IMG/VR virus record: IMGVR_UViG_3300018080_000215
Span: 1-55,777 of that record
Reading direction: 5' to 3' (one strand)
Length of the DNA stretch: 55,777 bases
Source: a virus
Taxonomy: Duplodnaviria; Caudoviricetes
The notes beneath the pieces are model-generated. The model worked only from the letters and a program-made list of their open reading frames with translations, had not been told where the DNA came from and searched no databases. Both the position numbers and the translations under genes were made by a program. Positions 9,001 through 55,777 of the stretch are shown here, in pieces; within the stretch, counting starts at the first letter, position 1, and each line of letters starts with the position of its first letter.

Positions 9001-10772
9001 AGTTGGTAAAGATTGTCTCCATTGTCATTCCTTACAGTATCGGTTGTTAGCAATCTGCGGTCTTGGCCGCTCTGCGGTGTGTATCGGTTGCCCCAAGCAA
9101 TCCCCAGCGTAAGGTCGGGGCGACCGTCCGTATATTTTTCCTCGTCTATTTTGTGACTTCCGAGAGTCCAAGATTCGGGGCAGGGTGCGAGGTAAATGCG
9201 AATGACCGGCAACTGTGATTCCGCCTCTAGGGCATACGCTGAACCGTCAACCTTTCTTGCGGGTTCCATCGTAATGTCGGCGTAAGGGCGATCATTGTCA
9301 TCAAACTGTACTAACGCATTCTTGACTGTCCAGTTAGAAAAATTAGTCAGCCCGTTTTCTGGCCCCGTCAGGGCGTAATAGGAAATGTATGTGTAATCGG
9401 GGAAATAGTAATCCCCAGCGATGCGAATGGCCCGGTTGTTGCCTAGCCAATCATCGGGAGTTACGCCAATAGTTATCTGCTGGCTTTTAGCAAATATGTA
9501 GTTGTATGCCGACGCCCCAAGACCCCAAAACTTGTCGCGATTCGCATACCACATATATGTGAATCGGGTTGGTATGTTGTTGATTGGGGGGGTGTATGTG
9601 TTCTCAAAGTAGTCGTTGCTGGTGTACCAACCCGACCGCTTGTACCCAAACTTCACCGGAGTCGCGGTGTTGATGATGTTCGTAGTGAACACTGAATCAG
9701 TCGCGAAACCGGCGGGGTCTACGTTGCCGGTTTTGTACGATGCCGACAGTGGCGCGAACTTGAACTGCGCGAAGGCGTCTGTCTGCACAACTGCGTTATT
9801 GGCTTCGTAGTGCAGCGGGATAAGGGCAGTGTACACTCCGGTTACGGGCGAAAACGAAACGTCAACGCCAAATGTGGTCAAGCCTTCGCGATATGCGATC
9901 TGCGGGGCTTGGCCTGGGTCATGGAACCCATGTGTACTGCCAGCCGAATAAGAACCATTGAAGTCATTTGAGAGTTGCCCACCGTCGCTTTCGCGAAACC
10001 CATAGACTGCGGGGCTTTGCTCTAAATTTCCAATCGCGGAAAATCCGACGCCCAGTTGTTCGTCGCTGACTGCGATTTCGGGGACTTCGCGGTAGTTGCT
10101 ACCGCCATCGACAATATCAATTGCGACGATAGACCCACCTTGAACGACGGCCTTGAGTTTTGCAGGACGGTCTGGGTCGCCGCCTGACACAGTGATCTTC
10201 GGCGGGGTGTAGTAAGAAGTGCCGCTGTTGACAACATCTACGCGCTCAATGAACCATCCATCCCCACTTGGAGTCACCGTTGGGGCAACCGTAGGGGCAG
10301 CCAGACCCATCGGGACTGCCTGAGCGGTGTTGTCAACTATGGTGATCGGCGGTATGTCGTTTCCGAAAAACACATAGATGCTGCCATGCCGGTCTTCGCA
10401 GAATGAAGGGCGACCTTGGGGCGTTTGCGTTGTGCTGTAAACAGACAAATCGACTGATGATGTTAACGGCCCAGCATCAACGCGGAATCTTCTGAACAGC
10501 CGGTATCCGCTTGCGGTGTCGCCTGACTCGTCCGTAAGGTTTGCTGAAGGCCGGAACGAATAAAGAATGTCGAACTCGTTCGGCCCCCGCGATTGGCGGT
10601 ACACCGCTTCGTATGTTTCGCCGTAAGTGGTGTACTTGGGGGTCAAGCCGGGGCGGGGGGTCAGTTCTCCCAAGTTGCGGATTTGCAGGTTGTTCTGCAC
10701 CCGCATCACACCAGGGGGAAGCGAGAACTGGCTTGCCGCAGTAACAAGACCCTTCCAATCGCTGGTCTTCAT
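6036..10772 (-). CDS. Large tail protein, 1578 aa: nozzle/tail-tubular-B-like with inserted beta-rich repeats
   Basis: Nozzle-like segments (WQDRLW..., TIFFSE, RGALSQNAW, IETLSEPI) interleaved with V..GG.GY...P repeats; directly after the adaptor gene. Confidence 0.7.
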   Translation of the reverse strand: MKTSDWKGLVTAASQFSLPPGVMRVQNNLQIRNLGELTPRPGLTPKYTTYGETYEAVYRQSRGPNEFDILYSFRPSANLTDESGDTASGYRLFRRFRVDAGPLTSSVDLSVYSTTQTPQGRPSFCEDRHGSIYVFFGNDIPPITIVDNTAQAVPMGLAAPTVAPTVTPSGDGWFIERVDVVNSGTSYYTPPKITVSGGDPDRPAKLKAVVQGGSIVAIDIVDGGSNYREVPEIAVSDEQLGVGFSAIGNLEQSPAVYGFRESDGGQLSNDFNGSYSAGSTHGFHDPGQAPQIAYREGLTTFGVDVSFSPVTGVYTALIPLHYEANNAVVQTDAFAQFKFAPLSASYKTGNVDPAGFATDSVFTTNIINTATPVKFGYKRSGWYTSNDYFENTYTPPINNIPTRFTYMWYANRDKFWGLGASAYNYIFAKSQQITIGVTPDDWLGNNRAIRIAGDYYFPDYTYISYYALTGPENGLTNFSNWTVKNALVQFDDNDRPYADITMEPARKVDGSAYALEAESQLPVIRIYLAPCPESWTLGSHKIDEEKYTDGRPDLTLGIAWGNRYTPQSGQDRRLLTTDTVRNDNGDNLYQLSSTVQDSYTRWWGKGHVGTDQPNGYNLAQPIVDFRDAANNDTIGIAAGTIEVINPGSFLEKGAKFAIRFYQFNAAGYTVVDRGGRLDSTWIFGVTGSRKYFRNAAGWFNEVRGGTDVEASYTDFYLQAEEVDTAGTAGSLLMPGAVITSPAEDAPKVVISGSGWTAANEVGYVRLRQKAPPFLTDPNAVGNGFTNSDVWKFTTVQLAASVAGERIGSVTILSGGRDYYREPQILFRGGSGYGLRLGATVSGGTVTSVAILDGGDGFASDTVLYTDVTPAKLIPVLRGTMQGSYECAYRFADYSRTVVSRPTYTTSNPLDNSRRITVSDATGIKPGMQITDAENIEHMARIKSVQGNILTLERPLLSPGTDKPCTIRDMTRPVTYSDLSPFASVEADANGSGRASRLNWTLDGVIPPSRADYVEFFRTSADQSLVYYRTDVYGEINDGNITISNGGRDELSDEELFDPNRSNYAALPVVLPNGAVNAFRFGIPRSDMGVAVAWQDRLWYGVSSSGKDANTIFFSEYDEFESCPDVNELPIQTNLRATDYLTALVPFGHLLLAMQNSHCYSLTYNTDPSIDATINLVAHRGALSQNAWDIYDDLLYAVDERGVYSMTPGGAIETLSEPIRNFFDDNLLQLQYRDAFFLKVDAQSAILRVFVVTNDTTREYPDLALCYHIRNKVWWTETYPTALTCATDFRDELEPDKTLYASIDGHLHRLEGLRDTAFRDIVQVVVQYGGSGYVDPPAVSVSTLNGSGTAKFQAIVRKGKVTQIQIIDGGYGYGGIDIFGVFIANEPLIIEPSPTGNPADNALGYSVARVPSTLEQQGNPPAEVVVYSRATVPWTLRTGSMELNNDGNTRGGDSQQDRSVSVAYRPTETSTTLILREYYNNDTSPRPNAMRRDRGTGFVHDANSSQTTLDMVSSRTPFGPATGVAMARFAGRSLTDMSSSDRHIAIELSSQARSADADDLAPSKTVLYGLEVEGVDANS

Positions 10773-38582: not shown

Positions 38583-38869
38583 GTGTGCCTTCAATTCTTA
38601 ACCAAGCAGAGATGATGGTGATTGCCTTGAGTGCATACCAAATGTTGTACCGGGGCAGCGAGGACAGGATCGTTGTTGGGCTAACACCGCAGCATTGCAG
38701 CGCAATACGGGCAATGCTTCAGGACGATAACTTCAAGGCAGTCGCACTCGATGCTTGGAATGAAGTATTCGTTGAGAGAGAAGGTGAGTTGTATGACGCT
38801 GTTCGGGCTGCGATGCAGGAGTGCGGTGTTTGGGACTCGTTTCGCGAAGTCTGTGGAGACAAGCGGTGA
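38579..38869 (+). CDS. Hypothetical protein
   Basis: GGAGG RBS, ATGA coupling. Confidence 0.6.
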   Translation: MSVPSILNQAEMMVIALSAYQMLYRGSEDRIVVGLTPQHCSAIRAMLQDDNFKAVALDAWNEVFVEREGELYDAVRAAMQECGVWDSFREVCGDKR

Positions 38870-39660
38870 AGAAGCAGCGACCTGGGCTGGTCTATGGTTA
38901 CGGGCGGCACTCCACCCACAAGCAAGACTTGACCCAAGATGTTCAGAAACAGCGGTGTTACGAATACTTCCAACGGAGCCTGTTGGGAGACGGGTGTATT
39001 TGGCAAGGGTTCTATTACGATACCGCTGTATCTGCTGGGAGAACTTCGTTTGCTGAAAGACCGCAAGGAAAGATGGTCTTCCATTCCCTCCAGCCTGGGG
39101 ATCACCTAGTCTTATCCAGGCTCGACCGATGCTTCCGTTCTGTTCTGGACGGGGTCAATGTGATGGAGATGCTTGAGAAGAGGGGAGTGTATTTTCATTC
39201 GCTCGACCTGAGTATCGACACTAGAACCCCGCTCGGTAGGTACGTCCGCAACATCTTGCTGGCTGGCGCAGAGTTGGAACGCGATTTAGCCAGGGAGAGA
39301 GCCAACGAAACAATTGCATACTTGCAATCACAAGACCTCCCTTACACTAGGGTTGCTCCGATTGGCTGGAAGATCGTTCGGAGAAACAAGCGTCGGGAGT
39401 ATCGGGTAGACCAAGAGGAAAGGGATTTCGTAGAACTGCTGCGGGAGGGCAGGGATGCCGGTGCTTCGGTCTACGATCTTGCCAACTACTGCTGGAATAC
39501 CCAGGAACGGTTTGGGACGAGCCGGAACTTTGGGAACCTGTCTGCCATCAAGTGGGCTTTGCAAGCCCATGCACTTGGCTTCCCCAAGGTTGTTGGTCGA
39601 AGAAGGATAAACAAACTGTGGCGGGAACAGCATGATGCTGGCCTGCTTCCCCAGTTCTAA
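38866..39660 (+). CDS. Serine recombinase (resolvase/invertase catalytic domain)
   Basis: YGYGRHST..Q catalytic motif, D.AVSA...RP, GD.LV.SRLDR..R, AELERDL..ER. Confidence 0.92.
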   Translation: MKKQRPGLVYGYGRHSTHKQDLTQDVQKQRCYEYFQRSLLGDGCIWQGFYYDTAVSAGRTSFAERPQGKMVFHSLQPGDHLVLSRLDRCFRSVLDGVNVMEMLEKRGVYFHSLDLSIDTRTPLGRYVRNILLAGAELERDLARERANETIAYLQSQDLPYTRVAPIGWKIVRRNKRREYRVDQEERDFVELLREGRDAGASVYDLANYCWNTQERFGTSRNFGNLSAIKWALQAHALGFPKVVGRRRINKLWREQHDAGLLPQF

Positions 39661-40184
39661 GGCAGATCGCTCTCTGCCTGACGCAGCGACTTGATCGCTG
39701 CTTGTACCCTCCGCTGAATAGTGCGGGGGTCACACTGCTGCTCGTATCCCAGTTGCTCTAGGGTGACTTGCTCTATGAGCCGATCTTCGAGAAGCACTCT
39801 GTCTTCCGCAGACAGCAGCCTCAATGCCCGCAGTGCCCGCATTTCCTGGCGGGTTCTGTGGGTGTTGGGGGTGGGGTCTAGGATTCTTTCTGTCGGGATA
39901 TATCTGCCGTCCTGCCTCTGTTGCTTCAGGACTTCCCGATATAGGGCATGGCGAATAGCCGAAGAGAAGTATGTGCTGACTTGGCTCTTCTCTGGACTGT
40001 AGGTAAATGCCGCGAGACAGATCGCATGATTGGCAACACTGTACAGATCGACCCTCTTGATCCAGGGGCGCAGGTCTGGATTGCGCTTGATGAATGTCCG
40101 CACCGCTGGCTGCACTACTTCGGCAGCCTCTTCTACATAGCGGCGTTGCTTGTTATTCAGTCGGCGGGGCTTGCTCTGGCGCAT
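39657..40184 (-). CDS. Phage sigma70-family (group 3/ECF-like) sigma factor
   Basis: Region 2 (DL.S.A..AI..AA.TY.PEKS..STY....IR) and region 4 (LS.EDR.LL......TL..LG.......TI). Confidence 0.8.
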   Translation of the reverse strand: MRQSKPRRLNNKQRRYVEEAAEVVQPAVRTFIKRNPDLRPWIKRVDLYSVANHAICLAAFTYSPEKSQVSTYFSSAIRHALYREVLKQQRQDGRYIPTERILDPTPNTHRTRQEMRALRALRLLSAEDRVLLEDRLIEQVTLEQLGYEQQCDPRTIQRRVQAAIKSLRQAESDLP

Positions 40185-45412: not shown

Positions 45413-46993
45413 TCAGTTGTTTCTGTTTCTGATCTCCCGCTGGATGGCGGCTCGCAAGGGTTCTTTGATCCCGCGCGCCTTGAGTAGCCAGTGCAGCAAA
45501 CCCGTATCCACCTCTCTGATTAAGCGGCCTCGCTCCTTGCCGAACGGAACTCTCCAGCCTCGCTGGCTTGGGCGGCTCTCGGCCCGCAGGAAGGCCGGTC
45601 GCTCGTAGTTGCCGAACTCGACCCCTGCCAGCCAAGCGGCCCTCTGACGCTCTGTGAGAGCCTCCTGGGCAGCCCTCTGTCTGGCCTCCTGTGCGGCCTC
45701 CTCTGCCATGAGTTCCCGCTCGACGGCAAGCAGGCGATCCAAGTCTGTTGGCGACATTGGGGTGTCCGGCTTGCGCTTGCCCTTGGCTCTCTTGAGAAGG
45801 TCGATTTCTTCCTTGCCTCTGAGTGCGTCCACTGAGGTGATGAGGTCGTTGTGTCTAGATGCGTCCACCAGATCGAAGATTTCAAAGAACGGCTTCTGGG
45901 ATGCTGCGATAGCGGCTCGACGCTCCTCGGGGGTCGCCAGCCCGACCAGCATGGAGGCGGGCCAGGGTCGAGTTCCGCGTCCAACCATCTGCTGATAGAG
46001 CGACCTACTCTTCGTCGGCTTGCAGCAAAATAGTTTTTTGACCATCGGGCAATTCCAACCGGTGGTCAGGCAGCCGACATTGAGGATGACATTCAGTTCG
46101 CCAGCCTCAAACATTCCTAGATGCCTGAATCTCTCGTCGCGATCCATCCTGCTGTGGACGATTGCCGCCTCTAGCCCGCCGCGAGCGAGAACAGTCCGCA
46201 CCCTCTCTGCCTGGAATACCCCTTGGCAATAGACAACGCTCGGCTCTCCCTCATGGTGTTGAAGGACAAGGTTGGCTACGGTCTGGACGAGACTGTCGCG
46301 AGACATCTCCTTGGCTAGACGCTCGGCAGAGTAATCGCCGAAGCCAGAGTCGAACCGGCTAAGGTCTAGGTCGCTGGCAACAGACAGCCAGATGCGGGGC
46401 GGTACGAGCCAGCCATCCTCGATGGCCTGCTGCAACTCATAGAAGTACGCGCAGTCGCCGTAGAACTCTGTAAGCGGATCGCCTTTGAGCCGGTCTGGCG
46501 ATGCAGTCAAGCCGATGATTTTGGAGCCGCACTCTCGGAAGACCGAGAGTATGTCCATCGCTCTCTTGCTGTAGTTGAGATGTGACTCATCTACCAGCAC
46601 AACAGAGACGTTGTGCGTATACGCTTGGTATCGCTCTCGCGATATGAGGGACTTATAACTGGCGACAGTGATCCGCTGATCGCTGATCTGCCTGCCCTGC
46701 TCGATGCCACAGGGTAGCCCCCTCGACCGTAGTCGCTCGGCAGTCTGAGCAACCAGAGGGTCAAGGGGGCTAACCACCAGCCCCCGCGACTCGCCAGTAG
46801 CGAGGGCTTGCAGTAACATCACTATTATCTCGGTCTTGCCAGTGCCACATGGCAATACCAACAAGCCCCCCGACTTTGTCTCCAGGTGCTTGAGGCACTT
46901 GTCAACTGCGGCGATCTGGTAATCCCGCCAACGCACTGACCCCTGGGGTGCAGGAATCGCATGGGTTGGGAATAGTGATAGATTCTGCGGCAT
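45413..46993 (-). CDS. SF2 (DExH) helicase with C-terminal PFGK..G motif
   Basis: RDYQ, PCGTGKT, DESH, GLTASP.R, LTTGWN.P, QMVGRGTR. Confidence 0.92.
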   Translation of the reverse strand: MPQNLSLFPTHAIPAPQGSVRWRDYQIAAVDKCLKHLETKSGGLLVLPCGTGKTEIIVMLLQALATGESRGLVVSPLDPLVAQTAERLRSRGLPCGIEQGRQISDQRITVASYKSLISRERYQAYTHNVSVVLVDESHLNYSKRAMDILSVFRECGSKIIGLTASPDRLKGDPLTEFYGDCAYFYELQQAIEDGWLVPPRIWLSVASDLDLSRFDSGFGDYSAERLAKEMSRDSLVQTVANLVLQHHEGEPSVVYCQGVFQAERVRTVLARGGLEAAIVHSRMDRDERFRHLGMFEAGELNVILNVGCLTTGWNCPMVKKLFCCKPTKSRSLYQQMVGRGTRPWPASMLVGLATPEERRAAIAASQKPFFEIFDLVDASRHNDLITSVDALRGKEEIDLLKRAKGKRKPDTPMSPTDLDRLLAVERELMAEEAAQEARQRAAQEALTERQRAAWLAGVEFGNYERPAFLRAESRPSQRGWRVPFGKERGRLIREVDTGLLHWLLKARGIKEPLRAAIQREIRNRNN

Positions 46994-47313: not shown

Positions 47314-47557
47314 CTGACAATCCCCCTTTCATTAAGAACTCATCTACCCTGTCTGCGAACATCGCCCGCAGAGTGTCCAATTCCGAGAACAGCGAGAGAA
47401 CGTCACCCCGAAGGGAGACAAAGGCGAGTTGAACCCGCCAATACTGTTCTTCGTCGTAACGCACCAATTCCTCGTTACTGTCAACGAGATTCCGCGCTGC
47501 CTCGGCGGCAGTCAGTAACCTCTCCTTGATCTCCAGAAGTTGTGATCCGCTAATCAT
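47081..47557 (-). CDS. Hypothetical protein
   Basis: AGGAG RBS, ATGA coupling; disordered tail overlaps the next gene. Confidence 0.6.
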   Translation of the reverse strand: MISGSQLLEIKERLLTAAEAARNLVDSNEELVRYDEEQYWRVQLAFVSLRGDVLSLFSELDTLRAMFADRVDEFLMKGGLSDAISSDDRSESNTGDDVPAVEDGGSGSGSEEKRDDPTAASEPVPAKRTRRKRAKRAKSSGDSPDSEVATESMDGGAG

Positions 47558-48195
47558 TTCTGCTCCTTCCTGCTAAGGGCTTGCTTGCGGAAACCTGCCC
47601 GCTTGCGTATCTCGTTCATCTCTGCTGCACTGATCTCCTCACTGGCGAGACGCTCTTCAGCCCGCGACAGCAGCGCATCTATGTCTTCGACGGTTGATGC
47701 TGCTGCGAGTTTTTTCGCGGCTAGGTCGAGGAGTCGCGTCTTGGAATCCTGGGCGGCAGCGTCGGCGGCAGACTCGCCGTCATCGTCATCCTCTGACGAA
47801 AGGCCCAGCATCGAGGCGTAGGCCATGCGCCTCATATATGTGCAGTAGGCAGAGGTGTGCTGTGGGTTCTGCGAAACCTTGATAGGCACCTGACTGCTGA
47901 CGTATTGGCCCGTTTTGTGTAGCAGCGTTGTGTTGAGGATCAGATCGTCGCCCGCCGGGTGGAACGTCTGGAGGACTGCTAGACCGTTCTCGGCGAGTGG
48001 CCCCCGAGCCGCCCGCCGCAAGGCACTGAGGTCGGCGTATTCGCCGTACTGGCCTTTCCGGTTTTTCTTCGGTTCGTCCATTAGCCCCATCGCAAGAACG
48101 AGGCTCTCCGACAACTCCTTCAGGTCTTTGCTGCGTTCGACATAGACAAACACCCCATCCGACACATGGCTCTCAAGAGTCCTAATCGCTGGCAT
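47554..48195 (-). CDS. erf: ERF-family single-strand annealing protein
   Basis: YADL......PL..NGL...Q, LLH.TG, TY.RR......GL..EDDDG. Confidence 0.9.
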   Translation of the reverse strand: MPAIRTLESHVSDGVFVYVERSKDLKELSESLVLAMGLMDEPKKNRKGQYGEYADLSALRRAARGPLAENGLAVLQTFHPAGDDLILNTTLLHKTGQYVSSQVPIKVSQNPQHTSAYCTYMRRMAYASMLGLSSEDDDDGESAADAAAQDSKTRLLDLAAKKLAAASTVEDIDALLSRAEERLASEEISAAEMNEIRKRAGFRKQALSRKEQK

Positions 48196-48209
48196 CTCAG
48201 CCCCCCTTT

Positions 48210-49100
48210 TCAATAACGGCTCGGATACATTTCCAACTCAGTCATCTGCCCGTAGTCTTCGGGCAGCCAGTGATCCCATTCAGTCCGGTCGCGCATCTCG
48301 TCGAGATACCGCAAGACCCTGTCCCTGGCTCGGCGCACAACGGCTGCCGGAAGAGTCACCACATGGCAGTGGTGGGGAAACAGGGTGCTGATGACAACGA
48401 AGACCAACCGGTGATCCGGCCAGCCTGCGGCTACAGCAGCGTCCTCATAGACTGCGGACTGAAGGTCGTAGCCCCACTGCTGAACGCTTGAGCGAAATTG
48501 CTTTAGCGGGTAGAGATCGCGAGTGGTCTTGAGGTCGTACCAGAACTCCTCTGTCGCCCCATCGCAGCGGCAACGCATTTGGTGACCGTTCAGCGTCCAA
48601 CGGATGTTGAACTCGGCGTCGATGCGCTTCTCGAATATCTCTGCTGCGGCAGCGTTGCGAAGGATGCCCTGCCATTGGGCCTCAACCTGCTCTAACTCGG
48701 CGGGCGTTACGCCAACCCTGTCGGGCGGCAAGCCATCGAGCCACTCCTGCCCCTTCTTGCTCAACGCTCCAGTGGCGGTGATCGCAGACTCGGGGGCCAT
48801 CTCCAGCGAGTCATGCCACTGCTCGTCGCCTAACTCATGGCGAAGATGGAGAAGTGTCCCAGCGCGGAGGGCCGGGGAATTTTTCGGCGGGGCAGTTCCC
48901 GCGATATGCCGCAGGTAGTAGCCCAGCGGCGAATTCGCAAATTCTTTGAGTTGGGAACAGGAGATGCCAGCCGAGCGGTGGTACTCCTCGGCTGGCTGCC
49001 TATCTATGGTGACTAGCGGCGACCGGACTTGAACCGGTGACACCCGGCTTATGAATTCGGTGCCACCAGCACCACCCTCAAAAACTGAGGGAGCATCCAT
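48210..49100 (-). CDS. RecE/exonuclease VIII-like PD-(D/E)xK nuclease (DUF3799-like)
   Basis: YH...ISCSQLK, GT..H, RCRCD....DLKTT, GY..Q.A.Y; start ATG 49100 or 49181, or GTG inside the tRNA-like segment. Confidence 0.88.
   Translation of the reverse strand: MDAPSVFEGGAGGTEFISRVSPVQVRSPLVTIDRQPAEEYHRSAGISCSQLKEFANSPLGYYLRHIAGTAPPKNSPALRAGTLLHLRHELGDEQWHDSLEMAPESAITATGALSKKGQEWLDGLPPDRVGVTPAELEQVEAQWQGILRNAAAAEIFEKRIDAEFNIRWTLNGHQMRCRCDGATEEFWYDLKTTRDLYPLKQFRSSVQQWGYDLQSAVYEDAAVAAGWPDHRLVFVVISTLFPHHCHVVTLPAAVVRRARDRVLRYLDEMRDRTEWDHWLPEDYGQMTELEMYPSRY
49014..49063 (-). other. tRNA(CAT) 3'-half fragment, putative attP core
   Basis: TTCATAA loop-GCCGG-GTGTC-ACCGG TTCAAGT CCGGT-CGCCGCT-A; no D-arm or 5' acceptor strand; adjacent to the integrase. 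Confidence 0.8.
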
Positions 49101-49131
49101 CCCCTGGAGAGGGCACCCCCGGGAGGGCGAT

Positions 49132-50010
49132 ATGTCCCTTACACTTTCGTCAGTATCAAAAGGCTTGCCTTCATCGCCCATGACTCTAGCGTCCCTGGTT
49201 GCTGAGTATGTCGAGCAGAGGGGGGCTGGTGACCGCTACAAAGAATCCCTGCGGCGCACCGTTCGGAAACTGACAGGGTATGGAATGATCCGCGTCTGTC
49301 AACTCCGGTCGAGTGCGGTCAATGATTTTCTTTCCAGCCTCGCCCTGTCGGCCACTACCCGAGCGAACATTCGCCGCGAAATCCTGACCCTCTGGCGATA
49401 CGCATTTGAACAAGCGTACACTGACGAGGCACCGATTCGCGTCAGGCGTATCCGAGTTTGCCGAGAGCCACCGCAGTGCTGGAGCCTAGACACAATTCGC
49501 AGGATGCTGTGTCTGGCAGAACGCGATGAGTCGCCAGTTGTCAGACGAGTCCCAGGTCTACAGTGGCGAGATGTGATGCCCTGCTGGATCGCAATTGGCT
49601 ATGACACTGCACTCCGGTTTTCTGATCTGCTGCATCTCCACCAGCGAAACTACAACAATGGGGCAATCCGCGTAGTCGCCAGGAAGACGGGCAAGCCGAC
49701 CGTTCGCAAACTAAGCCAATACGCTATCTCGGTTACGGACAGCCTGTTGTCGAAAAGCACAACAGGGGAGTTGTTCTTGTGGTGCGTCACCCGCAGAAGA
49801 ATGCTGCTGAAGTGGAAGAATTTCCTAACCCAACATGGGATACCGGGATCGAGCCGGTGGTTGCGTCGGTCAGCAGCCACTTATGTCGAGCGAATCTCAC
49901 CGGGCGCAGCCCCCCGATTCCTGTCGCACAGCAATCCTGACTTAGCCAAGTTTCACTATATTGATGAAACTCTTCTGGCTCCGGTAGCGCAGCCGCCAGC
50001 ATTACGCTAA
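49132..50010 (+). CDS. int: Tyrosine recombinase/integrase
   Basis: TALRFSDL (R), RKTG (K), WLRRSAAT (R), LSH (H), HY (Y); GGAGG RBS before ATG 49132 (alternative start 49180); no obvious arm-binding domain. Confidence 0.88.
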   Translation: MSLTLSSVSKGLPSSPMTLASLVAEYVEQRGAGDRYKESLRRTVRKLTGYGMIRVCQLRSSAVNDFLSSLALSATTRANIRREILTLWRYAFEQAYTDEAPIRVRRIRVCREPPQCWSLDTIRRMLCLAERDESPVVRRVPGLQWRDVMPCWIAIGYDTALRFSDLLHLHQRNYNNGAIRVVARKTGKPTVRKLSQYAISVTDSLLSKSTTGELFLWCVTRRRMLLKWKNFLTQHGIPGSSRWLRRSAATYVERISPGAAPRFLSHSNPDLAKFHYIDETLLAPVAQPPALR

Positions 50011-50011
50011 A

Positions 50012-50299
50012 TCACCAACTGTAGTTGCAAGACCAATAGCCCGGCTTGGTCTTGTCCTTCTTCTCCGAACAGTTGTGTCGAGATTTGAAGTTGGCTCGTC
50101 TGCCAGCATCACCATGCCCCTTTCCCTTGCTGGAGCCTTCCTTGAAGTGGCCCATGCTGGCATCGCCGAACCTGACCAGTTTCTCGACGTTGTTGACGCA
50201 GGCTTTGACCACAAATTTCTTGCCGCCAGAAGTCTGTTTCTTTGGCTGGTTGCATTTCAGGGAGTCTTTGAGCGACTTGACGCTATTTCTTTTTGTCAC
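50012..50299 (-). CDS. Conserved small basic phage protein
   Basis: KKFVV.......KLVRFG...M....RR.NF.SRH.C....K..PGYWSC. Confidence 0.75.
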   Translation of the reverse strand: MTKRNSVKSLKDSLKCNQPKKQTSGGKKFVVKACVNNVEKLVRFGDASMGHFKEGSSKGKGHGDAGRRANFKSRHNCSEKKDKTKPGYWSCNYSW

Positions 50300-50447
50300 T
50301 TCGGCTATCCCTCAATGCCTTTTCGGTAGGTGCCCCCGGCGAACCGGGCTTTCGCATCCTCTCTCCGCTGCCAGCGGCGATTCGCTTCCGCTTGGCATGG
50401 ATGTTTGCCCAAAGACCCTTCAGTTTCTTGACATTGTTCTTTGCCAT
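50283..50447 (-). CDS. Small basic phage protein, 54 aa, below the ORF-track cutoff
   Basis: MAKNNVKKLKGLWANIHAKRKRIAAGSGERMRKPGSPGAPT...; TAATG coupling. Confidence 0.75.
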   Translation of the reverse strand: MAKNNVKKLKGLWANIHAKRKRIAAGSGERMRKPGSPGAPTEKALRDSRSDKKK

Positions 50448-53400
50448 TATCGGCTCCCGGCATACTTGCGCTCGTAAAACTCTCTCAACTGCCTACTCAA
50501 GTCGCGGCCCAGTGCGTCGAGCCGCTGGGTTTCGATTGGCAGCGTAGGCAGAAGTTCCTTCGGAATGTTGCTAATAGTGAAATCCTGGGCATACGGAGCA
50601 TTCTGCTGCCGGATTTTCTCTAAGGCATCGAGAGCCTCATATTCCGCATCGACGTTCTGAATCTTTACCCCTGTGAACGTATTGGTCAGTGCCTTCAGCA
50701 GACGGTAATTGACATCTGGGATTGACGGGTCAACGAGGTTCGCGGCAAGACTCGCCCCGCGACTACCCATTGGCACAACAGACGCAGCATTGGAGATGAC
50801 TGACCGCAGTAGCGGGTTGATTCGGGCATACCTGTTTCCAGTAGCCGCCCTATAAATTTTGTCGTAGGGGGTGACTGCCTGTTCCAACGGTCGCTTGCTG
50901 AAGAAGTCTCGCCCAGTTGCGAGTTCTGCCACTGAGCGAATGAGGGGATTAGCCTGCTGAAATACCTCGCCAATGGTTTCTTGGCCTGTCCGCAAGGCAG
51001 ACCCGAGCATATCTGGGGCATATCCCAGTTTGATTAGATTGAGAGTATCAATTCCGGGAAGGTCAATGTCGGTGAGGTACGTTTGGAGTTGATCCTGCCA
51101 CCCCGGCATACGGACAGCGAACCGCTGTCGCAACGCTGTCGGGATATACGTTTCGTCAGTAGTGGCCTGGGCATCGTTGATTGCCCGAATGGTCTGGGCG
51201 TATCTACCGCCAGGATTTCGCAACAGCGACTCGACTGCATACTTACCAATCCTGCTGGTGTAGGCCCACCAGGGAAACAGCGTTCTCCGCATAAAATTTC
51301 GCTCGAACTTTGTCAGAGAGCCGTAGTCCACCAGGGCACTCTTCATGCGACGGGATGCCTCGTCAATCGAAACACCCTTGCGTAGCAGTGCTAAGAACCC
51401 GCCGACTCGGCCCATCGAGTCGATGCTGTCGCCGAGCATATTGCTGGCGTTGTAGAGGGCATTGCGAGTTTCGTATGTGTTGTTGACCCCCCGAACAGTG
51501 GCGAAGTCGCTGAGTTGTTGCGACAAATTGCGGCTGCCGTCAGGCACTAACTGCTTCAGTGCCCGCGAAATGGAGATTGGCGTTGACCCGGGAACGAACT
51601 GACTGATGTCGCCCCTGCGGTTAGCGGACAACAGGTCGCTGGTGGCAAGCCCCTGGAGTGTGCCGGTCGAGCCGATGTCGTTTTGGACTTGGGCGATTAG
51701 GTTTTTTCCTTTAAGCCCAAGAGCCTTGTAACGAGGGATAGATTCTAGGTAATCGGCAATCTCATCCCATTTCCCGTTGATGAGTTTCGATCCTGCCCGA
51801 ACCCCCCGCAGTGTTTCCGCTACATCTCCTGTCTCTAGCCAGACAGAGAACAAGTTGCTATAGGCGTCTCTCGCGAAGCGACTCGGCCATGTCAGGACAC
51901 TGCTCTTAAATAGAGTGGTGAACTTGTCGAACAGGCTGGCGACCTCTTTCTGAGCGTCGGGAGTGTTGTAGAAGGCATCCATCCGCAGGATGCGGTTAAC
52001 CATCTCGCGGGGGACAGAAATGCTCTTGAGCCGTATTCTTCGCGCCTGAGTGCCGGGTGCAAACTGGGCAGCCGCGAGTCGATCCCTAATGTACTGGCTG
52101 GCCTTGCGGCTATTAGGGTCAATCCCGATGGCATCTCCAATTTGTTTCAACGCATCAGATAGCCGTAGGTATTTCCCGCCTGGGATATTCTCCCGACGAG
52201 CGATCACTGCGGAATCTACCAGTGCCTCAAATGCACTTTCCGCATTGTTCCTGCGAACCTCTTCGTTGATGATGTAAGACATCTGTTCAACGATGGGATG
52301 CGTCCCAAACACCGGGATATTGTCGGGAATGTCTTTACCAAGTGCCCGATAGATTTTTGCTATCTCGGTGCCCTGCCGCTCGGTAACGAGCGGGTTGCCA
52401 ATGAGTTGGGCTATGTATGCCCCAATCTCTGCTTCTGTCTCCTGTGATGCCCCTTTCATGAAAGCGCGGACGCGAGGGTCGAGACTGATTTGCTGAAGTT
52501 GGTATGTGCCGCCCGGAACAAACAGGTCTGGGTTACGGGCAATCTGGTTAGCGATCTTGGCCGAGTACGATGCGGCGTAGCCAGGGGCGTTGACCGCCCC
52601 GTCCGTAAAGTCCAGTTCTGGCGTCGATCTTGGGCTGAAGTAGGTGCCGAATGGGTCGCGTAACTCATTGGCTTTCAGTCCAAGGGCTTTGGCCTCGGCC
52701 AGTTTTGAGTCAGCGATCTGCCGCCAGCCGACGATCCAATCGTCGAGTTCTGGCATATCCCGCAATAGATCGAGGTCAGTACCAATAGGCTTTCCTTCGA
52801 TCAGTCGCAGGAGCGTATCTGCCCCCTCGGGACTGAAGAAACTGGTGATTCCAGTTTTCTGGGTGACCGACGCGGGAATGGCGATTTGTTGCAGTCGAGT
52901 AGCATGGGCAGTCGCCTCTGACCGGCCAGCCCGCAAAGCCTGTTCCTGGCCTTGATACCGACGCATAGCCATGATTTGGTCGCCCACCTTGGTGGTGTCG
53001 CCAACCGCTTTGGAGAAGAACGACGAGGCCAAACGCGACGGGTAACTCCATCGAATGCCAGCCCCTAGCCTGTCGAGGGCATCGGCAGCACCCTCGGCAA
53101 ACCCCAGTTTGCTCAAGTCATCTGTGCGGCCAGCATTCAGAGCGGCGTTGATGACAGACGATTCGCCGCTAAACGGATTCCAAATTCCCGCTACGCCACC
53201 TAGCCGCTGATTGCGGACTTCTGCGTAGGGTGTGTTGCCTAGAGCATTTTGAACGTCTTTGAATGCCTGGAGCGGGTCAGGGGCAGCCTTAACGACTTCG
53301 TCCAACGTCGTTGTCATCTGGGCAAGACGCTGTCCCACTAATGGTCTGGTCTGCAAGACAGACGTAGTCGGCTTGAGTCCAGCCTTGCCGATCTCCCGCA

Positions 53401-54720: not shown

Positions 54721-55767
54721 TTACTCGCTCATTTGCTGCATACGAATGATGTTGTATTCCACGGCGCGCACCAACAGGCTTCCCAACTGCATGGCTTGGT
54801 CAGTGCGCAGTCCAGCCATCTGCTGAACCTGACCCACAACCTGGGCAATCTTCTGCTGTCGGGCGGCGCGGTCAGCCTTGGAGTCGCCGGTGCTGGACTG
54901 CGCCAGAATGCTCGACAACTCCAAGATTGCCGGATCGCTTATGCTGGGAGCCTGCCGACTATTGACCCTATCGGCAAACACCACTGCCGCTGCCTGCAAA
55001 GCGTTATTAGCGTAACGCTGTTGATACATAGGCTGGGTAGGATCGGGGGTTACTTGTGCTGCGATGAACTGTGCATCCGTTGCCGCTGATGCAGCCCCAG
55101 CAATGCCCATAGTCCTAGCAGTCTGGGCGAATGACTGCGCGTCGGTGTAGATCGAGTCTGGCGGCTTTTGGAGTCTCGCGGCAGCCAACGCATTCTCGCG
55201 CTCGAACTGGGCCTGCTGGCTTGCATACTGCTGGTTGCTGTAGTCCTGCATCAGAGCGTCAGCCCTAACAGACTCCTGGGCTGCCAAGCCCTGTTCTGTC
55301 ATCAGTAGTCGCTCTAGTTGGTTGTATTGGTCGCTGCCAGCCGAGACGCTGTCCATCTGCGATTGAAGAGATTGCATCCGCGCCGCCCGCTGTTGGGCCG
55401 ATTGCCGCAATGCCTGAGATTGCGTAATTCGCCAATCTGGCGGCGGGGCGTCTGTCTCATCGACCGGGACTTGCATCGCAAACCCGGCAAACTGTTTGTC
55501 CTTCGGGGGTTCAGCGGGAGCCTGCTGAAAGCCCTCCATTTGCTTAGTCTTGGCCTGCCGTCTTTCCGAGTCCATCATTCGGGCAGTGCTGACGGCCCGG
55601 GCCTCGGGATTCTGCGTAATCGGCAGGCTGGTTGTCCCTGTCGAATAAGCGTTTGTCTTGGGTGGCGGCTGCGAGATGCGGCGAGTCGGGCCTACCGACA
55701 AATCTGTGTTGTCGCCCCGCATCATGCTGTCCATACCAAAAGACCCGTATTTTGGTGGCAGTCCCAC
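54721..55767 (-). CDS. Gln/Ala-rich probable ejected virion protein
   Basis: 348 aa helical composition; GTG overlaps the upstream TAG. Confidence 0.6.
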   Translation of the reverse strand: MGLPPKYGSFGMDSMMRGDNTDLSVGPTRRISQPPPKTNAYSTGTTSLPITQNPEARAVSTARMMDSERRQAKTKQMEGFQQAPAEPPKDKQFAGFAMQVPVDETDAPPPDWRITQSQALRQSAQQRAARMQSLQSQMDSVSAGSDQYNQLERLLMTEQGLAAQESVRADALMQDYSNQQYASQQAQFERENALAAARLQKPPDSIYTDAQSFAQTARTMGIAGAASAATDAQFIAAQVTPDPTQPMYQQRYANNALQAAAVVFADRVNSRQAPSISDPAILELSSILAQSSTGDSKADRAARQQKIAQVVGQVQQMAGLRTDQAMQLGSLLVRAVEYNIIRMQQMSE

Positions 55768-55777
55768 TAGCCTGCGG

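Follow-up and report, generated by a model that had tools for sequence, protein, structure and literature searches.

The window analyzed here is the whole of virus record IMGVR_UViG_3300018080_000215 from IMG/VR (Caudoviricetes; 55,777 bp, classed as linear, with a G+C content of 55% and a CheckV completeness estimate of 95%), and we are concerned with the place in it where a gene for a RecE-like exonuclease meets a divergent gene for a tyrosine integrase. The open reading frame (ORF) of the exonuclease (48210-49181, minus strand) contains the 3' part of a tRNA-Met(CAT) gene (49014..49063, minus strand), which is the candidate core region of the phage attachment site (attP).

The exonuclease body (48210..49013, minus strand) is identified by alignment and by profile matches, scoring above the Pfam cut-offs for DUF3799 (48.7 bits; cut-off 26) and for the PD-(D/E)XK family PDDEXK_1 (32.3 bits; cut-off 22) and matching PHROG 412, 'exonuclease VIII', at E 2e-35. 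In the ORF these matches start at residues 58-74, and the conserved domain begins about five codons before a PAEEYH motif, the P codon of which lies at 48995-48993. Residues D207, D216 and K218 are invariant in 29 aligned sequences, and we read them as a putative D...(D/E)xK nuclease motif. Upstream of this domain the tRNA fragment is translated in frame as ...EFISRVSPVQVRSPL..., and neither ATG, GTG nor TTG occurs in the window between the fragment and the PAEEYH motif. Two in-frame ATGs, at 49100 and 49181, lie upstream of the core; the database gene call P0001 (296 aa) begins at the first and, counted from there, the exonuclease leader upstream of the core occupies 49064..49100 (minus strand). 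A codon scan located one further in-frame candidate, a GTG inside the core at 49041..49043 (minus strand), corresponding to tRNA positions 45-47.

On the opposite strand, the tyrosine integrase (49180..50010, plus strand; alternative start 49132) matches PHROG 1, 'integrase', at E 6e-9. All four integrase candidates compared match PHROG 1 and are 43-46% identical to one another; Pfam Phage_integrase is sub-threshold for the window integrase (17.5 bits; cut-off 27.1) and above the cut-off for two homologs from genome G1115, which is described below. Arg, His and His-Tyr columns are invariant in the four-sequence alignment and are, on our reading, the likely catalytic residues. Alignment with three homologs places the beginning of the conserved integrase at ATG 49180, while the better Shine-Dalgarno (SD)-like motif belongs to ATG 49132 (GGGAGGG before the ATG). 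Translation of the integrase from 49132, behind the good SD motif, and of the exonuclease from 49181 would make the divergent genes overlap by 50 nt, and 79 nt would separate them if the starts were 49180 and 49100; given such short or overlapping spacing, the promoters must be very close to, or within, coding sequence.

A host tRNA half inside a conserved gene layout

When the fragment is aligned to the tRNA-Met(CAT) gene of a Pirellulaceae metagenome-assembled genome (contig L002, 717-791), 48 of the 50 bases at 49014-49063 (minus strand) are identical to linear tRNA positions 25-74. All 42 nt of the stretch that opens with the first base of the anticodon loop and closes with the discriminator base (49014-49055, minus strand) match without a break, and both mismatches fall in the 5' arm of the anticodon stem (49056-49063, minus strand; 6/8 matching). 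A 41-nt exact pattern drawn from the identity block had a single match in the genome_contigs collection (185,579 prokaryote species, one genome each), namely L002, where ARAGORN calls the tRNA-Met at 717-791. Ordinary cellular-looking ORFs flank that tRNA gene on both sides with no phage genes beside it, and it therefore looks like an empty bacterial attachment site (attB). A tRNA BLAST search over 401 Pirellulaceae genomes, taking two matches per genome, allowed tRNA-Met to be extracted from 30 loci, among which only the L002 host has the acceptor arm seen in the phage, all others differing at one or more paired positions. The fragment is thus specific, rather than a generic tRNA resemblance, and it predicts the Pirellulaceae as the host lineage. 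ARAGORN found no complete tRNA in the window. From these matches, the phage appears to be a temperate one infecting Pirellulaceae (Planctomycetota), with 49014-49063 as its functional attP, presumably used by the adjoining tyrosine integrase.

An earlier reading of this stretch (hereafter the original prediction) had already placed a tRNA 3' half at 49014-49063 on the minus strand and proposed it as a putative attP, suggesting a comparison of the core with bacterial tRNAs; the 48/50 alignment with its 42/42 block bears out the former, and the comparison returned one exact match to a real host tRNA gene and a predicted host. The integrase ATGs at 49132 and 49180 and the CATG at 49179-49182 are in the sequence as it described them. 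Its further statements, that the fragment is read in frame before the YH...ISxSxLK region of the exonuclease and that no ATG, GTG or TTG intervenes, hold for the ORF at 48210-49181, and its wording that the start lies upstream of or within the att core covers the in-core GTG 49043 as well as the ATGs at 49100 and 49181.

The same arrangement recurs across a clade of phages. A protein search yielded 57 exonuclease homologs, 42-71% identical apart from the window's own call; ten relatives were compared at the DNA level, the DNA of seven close relatives coming from viral and metagenome contigs, and the remaining homologs were compared as proteins only. A translated sense-strand tRNA 3' half is present in the N-terminus of 37 of the 57, in two frames and derived from at least two tRNAs. 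In 23 the anticodon arm and T arm are read as ...RLHKPG(V)..SSP.., a frame that offers no start within the core; in seven the second open frame is read (GFISRVSPVQVR...), from a start that lies farther upstream; five begin within the tRNA-derived part, according to our reading of the peptides; and two show the variant SFPSW.SPV.... The remaining sense frame of the tRNA is closed by a TAA in the anticodon loop, which leaves the two observed frames as the only ones that can be open. The other N-termini comprise six with no tRNA piece and a start near the domain, seven called from an internal Met (MLKDY), four fragments, one unclear case and two that, on our reading only, have an antisense-tRNA look. 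These last two, P0004 and P0008, resemble the antisense strand of the tRNA including the anticodon loop of CAT, and may reflect an inverted cassette or a gene-call artifact. The seven MLKDY proteins (P0005, P0006, P0010, P0012, P0013, P0021 and P0034) are called from a point downstream of the PAEEYH segment, as a gene caller would do with a start-less gene of the kind found at the left prophage junction (attL, below), and three of them come from contigs of ~58-60 kb.

At the DNA level, loci L021, L022 and L101 carry a 47-52-nt 3' part of tRNA-Met that is 44/47 to 49/52 identical to the L002 gene and shows paired changes in the T stem. Locus L100 (255-298) has instead the 3' half of a different tRNA, with anticodon loop CCC, which corresponds to the SFPSW variant; relatives with a different tRNA at the same exonuclease 5' position are L100 and the proteins P0017 and P0040. 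The clade has switched its integration target without moving attP out of the gene. A divergent integrase ORF of ~300 aa lies directly upstream in L021, L022 and L101, that is, in all tRNA-Met-fragment loci with enough upstream DNA. Loci L020 and L102 have no tRNA fragment and no such integrase ORF, and their exonuclease ATG is found 9 and 11 codons before the motif. No canonical start occurs between fragment and domain in any of the five fragment-bearing loci, or inside the fragment in the three RLHKPG-frame loci, and the upstream starts are preceded by GAAGGAG (L022), GGGAGGG (L101) and GAAGGA (L021). With no start in or after the fragment and SD motifs upstream, the reading that translation in this clade starts upstream, with attP inside the ORF, is well supported.

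Prophage junctions in integrated relatives

Close matches to the exonuclease, obtained with the nuclease domain as the query, came only from an order-level sample, in which three of 401 Pirellulales genomes encode a protein 55%, 52% or 37% identical. In all three an intact tRNA-Met(CAT) called by ARAGORN lies on the same strand and ends 12-52 nt before the PAxEY motif, and upstream of the tRNAs there are non-phage genes (an AbiEii toxin, an unassigned ORF and a PNPOx-family protein). The exonuclease frame of each of these integrated relatives reaches back through the tRNA to a TAG at tRNA positions 8-10; no canonical start exists between that TAG and the domain in any of the three, and an in-frame start is reached again only 71-139 codons into the gene.

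The opposite junction (attR) was found in one of these genomes, G1115, where contig C173 carries two tandem integrase homologs, a leader that begins with GTG (preceded by GAGGAG), a tRNA-Met 3' half and then DNA unrelated to the exonuclease. The T arm of this tRNA half differs from the T arm in attL. The only block that attL and attR of the G1115 relative have in common is 20 nt long and covers linear tRNA positions 26-45, the anticodon stem-loop, which places the crossover there. A homolog from independent assemblies, P0018, ties the two junctions together: its first nine residues match the C173 leader at eight of nine positions, start codon apart; with the alignment continued into the tRNA-derived part, 21/24 residues are identical; and of its remaining 304 residues 302 are identical to the exonuclease body on contig C39 of G1115. 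Since P0018 joins the C173 leader to the C39 body, it comes from the free (attP) form of this phage.

Beyond the tRNA, contig C39 extends for 3 kb. At its start the G1115 right flank has ~70 nt that recur behind a tRNA-Met 3' half in another genome (G908, contig C1), and a large ORF of that flank recurs at 100% identity on contig C41 of G908; the orthologous tRNA-Met on G908:C1 holds a different island of ~9 kb, and its left flank is 75% identical to G1115:C39. This comparison shows that both G1115 flanks are chromosomal. G908 was also considered as an empty site and rejected, the orthologous tRNA-Met being occupied by the other island and the right flank being rearranged.

The genes displaced with the exonuclease body form one minus-strand block with it: an ERF-family single-strand annealing protein (47554..48213, minus strand; Pfam and PHROG), the listed TTG start of which overlaps the exonuclease stop, and a ResIII/DEAD-type helicase (45413..46993, minus strand; Pfam). 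The original prediction held that integration would place these genes behind a host tRNA, cut off from their start and promoter, it noted that tyrosine integrases often cross over in the anticodon loop, and it proposed a search for integrated relatives and an alignment of exonuclease N-termini. The search produced three genomes with attL, one of which also has attR, and together these relatives and the matching right-hand junction show the exonuclease-ERF-helicase genes behind the host tRNA without leader, start or upstream region; the crossover maps to the anticodon stem-loop in the G1115 relative; and comparison of the N-termini brought out the tRNA-derived peptide in 37 of 57 homologs. This part of the original prediction is supported. 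Its remark that no classical CI repressor lies beside int agrees with Pfam, which recognized no helix-turn-helix (HTH) or CI-type repressor among the 66 window ORFs, most proteins of the phage matching nothing.

Wider searches gave more distant signals. Exonuclease family members at 22-29% identity are present in 15 of 401 Pirellulaceae genomes, and none of 401 genomes in a phylum-level sample matched the exonuclease at E 1e-25. Used singly as queries against the viral_contigs collection, the window exonuclease, P0034 and P0021 brought up no relatives, and a degenerate whole-tRNA pattern found one unrelated provirus there. Public sequencing runs contained an attB-like contig (run X3) and a 92% relative with the same core-exonuclease layout (run X2).

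Several observations concern the integration site itself. The tandem integrases of G1115:C173 (locus L215, 5-838 and 1175-2002, both minus strand) are 56% and 49% identical to the window integrase, and the leader and tRNA half adjoin only the inner one; the pair may belong to a two-integrase phage or be the remnant of an earlier insertion. Unrelated elements are found at the same tRNA-Met in L227 (G908:C1; 764-837 and ~9735-9780) and L210 (2475-2549). The ~9-kb island of G908 encodes a 582-aa integrase, the ORF of which runs antisense into the tRNA, and another element at the same tRNA-Met is a provirus with integrases flanking the tRNA on both sides. This tRNA-Met is an insertion hot spot in Planctomycetota. 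In a further Pirellulaceae genome (G369:C29:3827-3950) two partial tRNA-Met matches, covering positions 1-65 and 20-75, adjoin head to tail and may represent a small att scar or a tRNA interrupted by an insertion.

Consequences of integration for the exonuclease gene

We simulated recombination of the window with L002 inside the 42-nt identity block. In the resulting attL the exonuclease frame is closed by a TAG at tRNA position 21, the in-core GTG is the only canonical start left and the next start lies 65 codons into the domain; in the resulting attR, the leader ORFs from ATG 49100 or 49181 extend 59 or 86 codons into host DNA. The overlap of the window identity block with the 20-nt attL/attR block of the G1115 relative suggests that the crossover in the window would fall at about 49043..49055 (minus strand).

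In the phages of this clade an integrase-attP cassette stands right at the beginning of the gene for the RecE-like exonuclease, and we propose that the exonuclease domain, having no adjoining start, would be translated from an upstream start through the tRNA-derived sequence into the nuclease domain. In the window phage this start is probably ATG 49100 or ATG 49181. Integration by crossover in the anticodon stem-loop would then leave, at attL, the host promoter, a rebuilt tRNA-Met, a start-less exonuclease body, ERF and the helicase and, at attR, the integrase, the exonuclease leader, the tRNA 3' half and host DNA. Because start and leader would be separated from the body, a full-length exonuclease gene would exist only on the excised or free genome, having been rebuilt by excision. 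The in-core GTG would in a lysogen lie inside a complete tRNA and, by what is generally the course of tRNA maturation, a read-through transcript would be cut between this GTG and the exonuclease body, so that the recombination module should stay untranslated until excision. The identity of attP, the gene layout, its conservation and junctions of both types are seen directly in the phages and relatives described above, and the window phage most likely integrates as its relatives do. To the overall reading, that a functional attP splits the exonuclease gene, which is decapitated by integration and rebuilt by excision, we assign a probability of about 0.78.

A number of results weigh against it. 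No lysogen of the exact window phage was found in the genomes and public-run contigs searched, and the window exonuclease is absent from the host-candidate genome G001 and from its genus (0/3). Among the contigs of public runs, including the source sample, no junction or joint contigs were seen, and the tRNA-Met contig of the source sample has three mismatches to the core and ends at the tRNA 3' end. Promoter and terminator scans did not rise above shuffles, and no promoter-like site was found in 48700-50500. The upstream ATGs lack a convincing ribosome-binding motif (GGGG abuts ATG 49100, and AGGGA lies 14 nt before ATG 49181), and the leader is weakly conserved, with five of ten codons changing the amino acid relative to the 92%-identical relative in run X2. 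A leader that evolves this fast is probably unimportant as a peptide; its likely contribution is to keep the frame open and to provide a place for initiation. The survival of GTG 49043 as the sole canonical start that stays with the exonuclease body, and the five homologs called from an in-core start, count on the same side.

If the split has a regulatory role, as the original prediction supposed in suggesting that recombination itself could gate lytic functions, the exonuclease-ERF-helicase module would be translatable only from the excised circular genome, and the state of attP might keep early functions off in the lysogen. We regard this excision checkpoint as tentative and rather unlikely; it would tie the onset of early functions to excision, with the attP state acting instead of, or besides, a classical repressor.

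Another account has odds only a little short of even, namely that the split is real and follows from where the cassette happened to land, but is neutral, the early operon being repressed in the prophage anyway. The fast-evolving leader, with no conserved peptide, fits such an account, as do the two tRNA frames and at least two tRNAs accepted at the same place, by which an open frame is kept and not a product, and the integrase-less relatives, which manage with an ordinary start. Set against this, the layout persists down to 37% exonuclease identity and across changes of the target tRNA, suggesting that it is at least not selected against, and the lack of a recognized repressor in the window counts as weak negative evidence.

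The place at which translation begins bears on another alternative, which accepts the same attP but has the gene translated from GTG 49043, or from a non-canonical codon after the core, with the upstream leader untranslated. Integration would in that case remove the promoter region only, and the gene would still be translatable in the prophage, for instance from read-through behind the tRNA. The weak motifs before both upstream ATGs favor this possibility, SD-like motifs precede only about half of the phage's genes in any event, the GTG at tRNA position 45 survives the simulated integration, and P0009, P0016, P0027, P0028 and P0030 are the homologs that, on our reading of their peptides, are called from an equivalent in-core start. 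Yet GTG 49043 itself has no preceding SD-like motif, and the closest homolog, P0002, has E and not V at this codon, and hence no in-core start. Moreover, the 23 homologs in the other frame have no start in the core at all, and upstream starts with good SD motifs are found there. In a lysogen, 3' processing of the complete tRNA, assuming that it matures in the general way, would also detach the gene body from this GTG. We therefore consider an in-core or later start improbable. That the site is no working attP but the dead remnant of a captured tRNA, or a scar left by an old recombination event, is hardly credible and already nearly refuted: arm-type repeats were not recognized around the core (we found just some scattered inverted repeats and one weak direct repeat of 12 nt, present in two copies), but the fragment is identical over 42/42 nt to the tRNA of a living host, relatives follow the tRNA variants of their own hosts down to paired T-stem changes, an integrase always adjoins and real attL and attR junctions exist in relatives.

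Known cases of attP in genes, and other features of the window

Genes split by their own attachment site, and genes whose expression depends on what lies across an att joint, are known from other elements. Integrases of archaeal viruses of the SSV1 type are split by their own attP on integration into a tRNA gene and rebuilt by excision. The proposed decapitation would likewise split a gene physically at a tRNA target and rebuild it on excision, but the gene is the exonuclease of a bacterial phage and not an archaeal viral integrase. In lambda sib retroregulation, and in the circular-form-dependent expression of Tn916 and some integrative and conjugative elements, RNA processing signals or promoters across the joint make expression differ between integrated and excised forms; here too the expression of an element's gene would be tied to what lies across the att joint, with the difference that the start codon and N-terminal coding sequence themselves would be removed.

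A close parallel is with mycobacteriophage BPs and its relatives, in which immunity is reported to be integration-dependent and attP lies inside the repressor gene 33 (PMC4557955; PMC3694055); integration cuts off the 3' end of the repressor, and the loss of a degradation tag yields an active, shorter protein (PMC4557955). As in BPs, attP of the window phage lies in a phage coding gene beside int, and integrated and free genomes would encode different products. Recombination itself alters gene expression in BPs, as it may in the window phage. In contrast to BPs, the part lost by the exonuclease would be not the 3' end but the 5' end, together with the start codon, the leader and the region upstream, and the gene that bears attP is an exonuclease with no repressor involved, which sets it apart from BPs-type immunity. 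In the myxophage Mx8, attP lies within the int coding sequence and integration is reported to make a recombinant gene (PMC6070905). Both are bacterial phages with a tyrosine integrase and attP in coding sequence; int of Mx8 has its 3' end replaced, whereas here int stays intact and it is the neighboring gene that would be cut at its 5' end. The integrase coding sequence does not include the core at 49014-49063, which lies beyond its divergent start, and the window phage is thus not of the SSV1/Mx8 type. The inovirus XacF1 is reported to have attP inside ORF12 (PMC5666396), and integration splits this ORF in two, as would happen to the exonuclease. XacF1 uses host XerC/D at dif with a putative regulator as the ORF, unlike the phage tyrosine integrase, tRNA gene and enzyme ORF of the window phage.

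Full-text searches found no literature on attP in an exonuclease gene or in planctomycete phages. What differs from the known cases is that a RecE-like exonuclease is affected, that it is affected at its 5' end, and that the arrangement is kept clade-wide through changes of frame and target tRNA. attP inside phage genes is known for integrases (Mx8, SSV1) and for some mycobacteriophage repressors, where it forms the core of a simple genetic switch; should the exonuclease split have regulatory force, it would be a second, independent example of gene control that depends on recombination state. Natural attL, attR and free forms exist for comparison in this uncultured planctomycete phage clade, and for the uncultured window phage a Pirellulaceae host is predicted. 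For annotation, an exonuclease gene that lies behind tRNA-Met and lacks a start, or has an odd one, marks a prophage end, and tRNA-like peptides at protein N-termini are not necessarily artifacts.

Behind the tRNA-derived part of the exonuclease gene, a perfect 10-bp inverted repeat able to form a hairpin (48966..48996, minus strand) extends across the PAEEYH codons, 18 nt past the tRNA end. Strong hairpins occur within about 70 nt after the tRNA end in five of eight att-bearing loci (z -2.6 to -6.6 versus shuffles), namely the window (48966-48996, minus strand), L100:299-372, L211 and L212 (1461-1534 in both) and L213:1448-1521, and they are weak or absent in L021, L022 and L101. Several of them cover the PAEEYH codons but pair in different registers; the idea of a conserved hairpin over these codons was therefore dropped, and no covariation is claimed. 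Standing just behind the rebuilt tRNA after integration, such hairpins could possibly act as a transcription or processing barrier.

Minus-strand ORFs at 2-2848 and 54721-55776 extend past both ends of the record; the contig probably lacks true ends and is a genome either cut open or slightly incomplete. The window also encodes a serine recombinase (38821-39660, plus strand; Pfam Resolvase, E 1e-26), and convergent on it lies a gene for a sigma-70 region-2-like protein (39657-40184, minus strand; a sub-threshold match).

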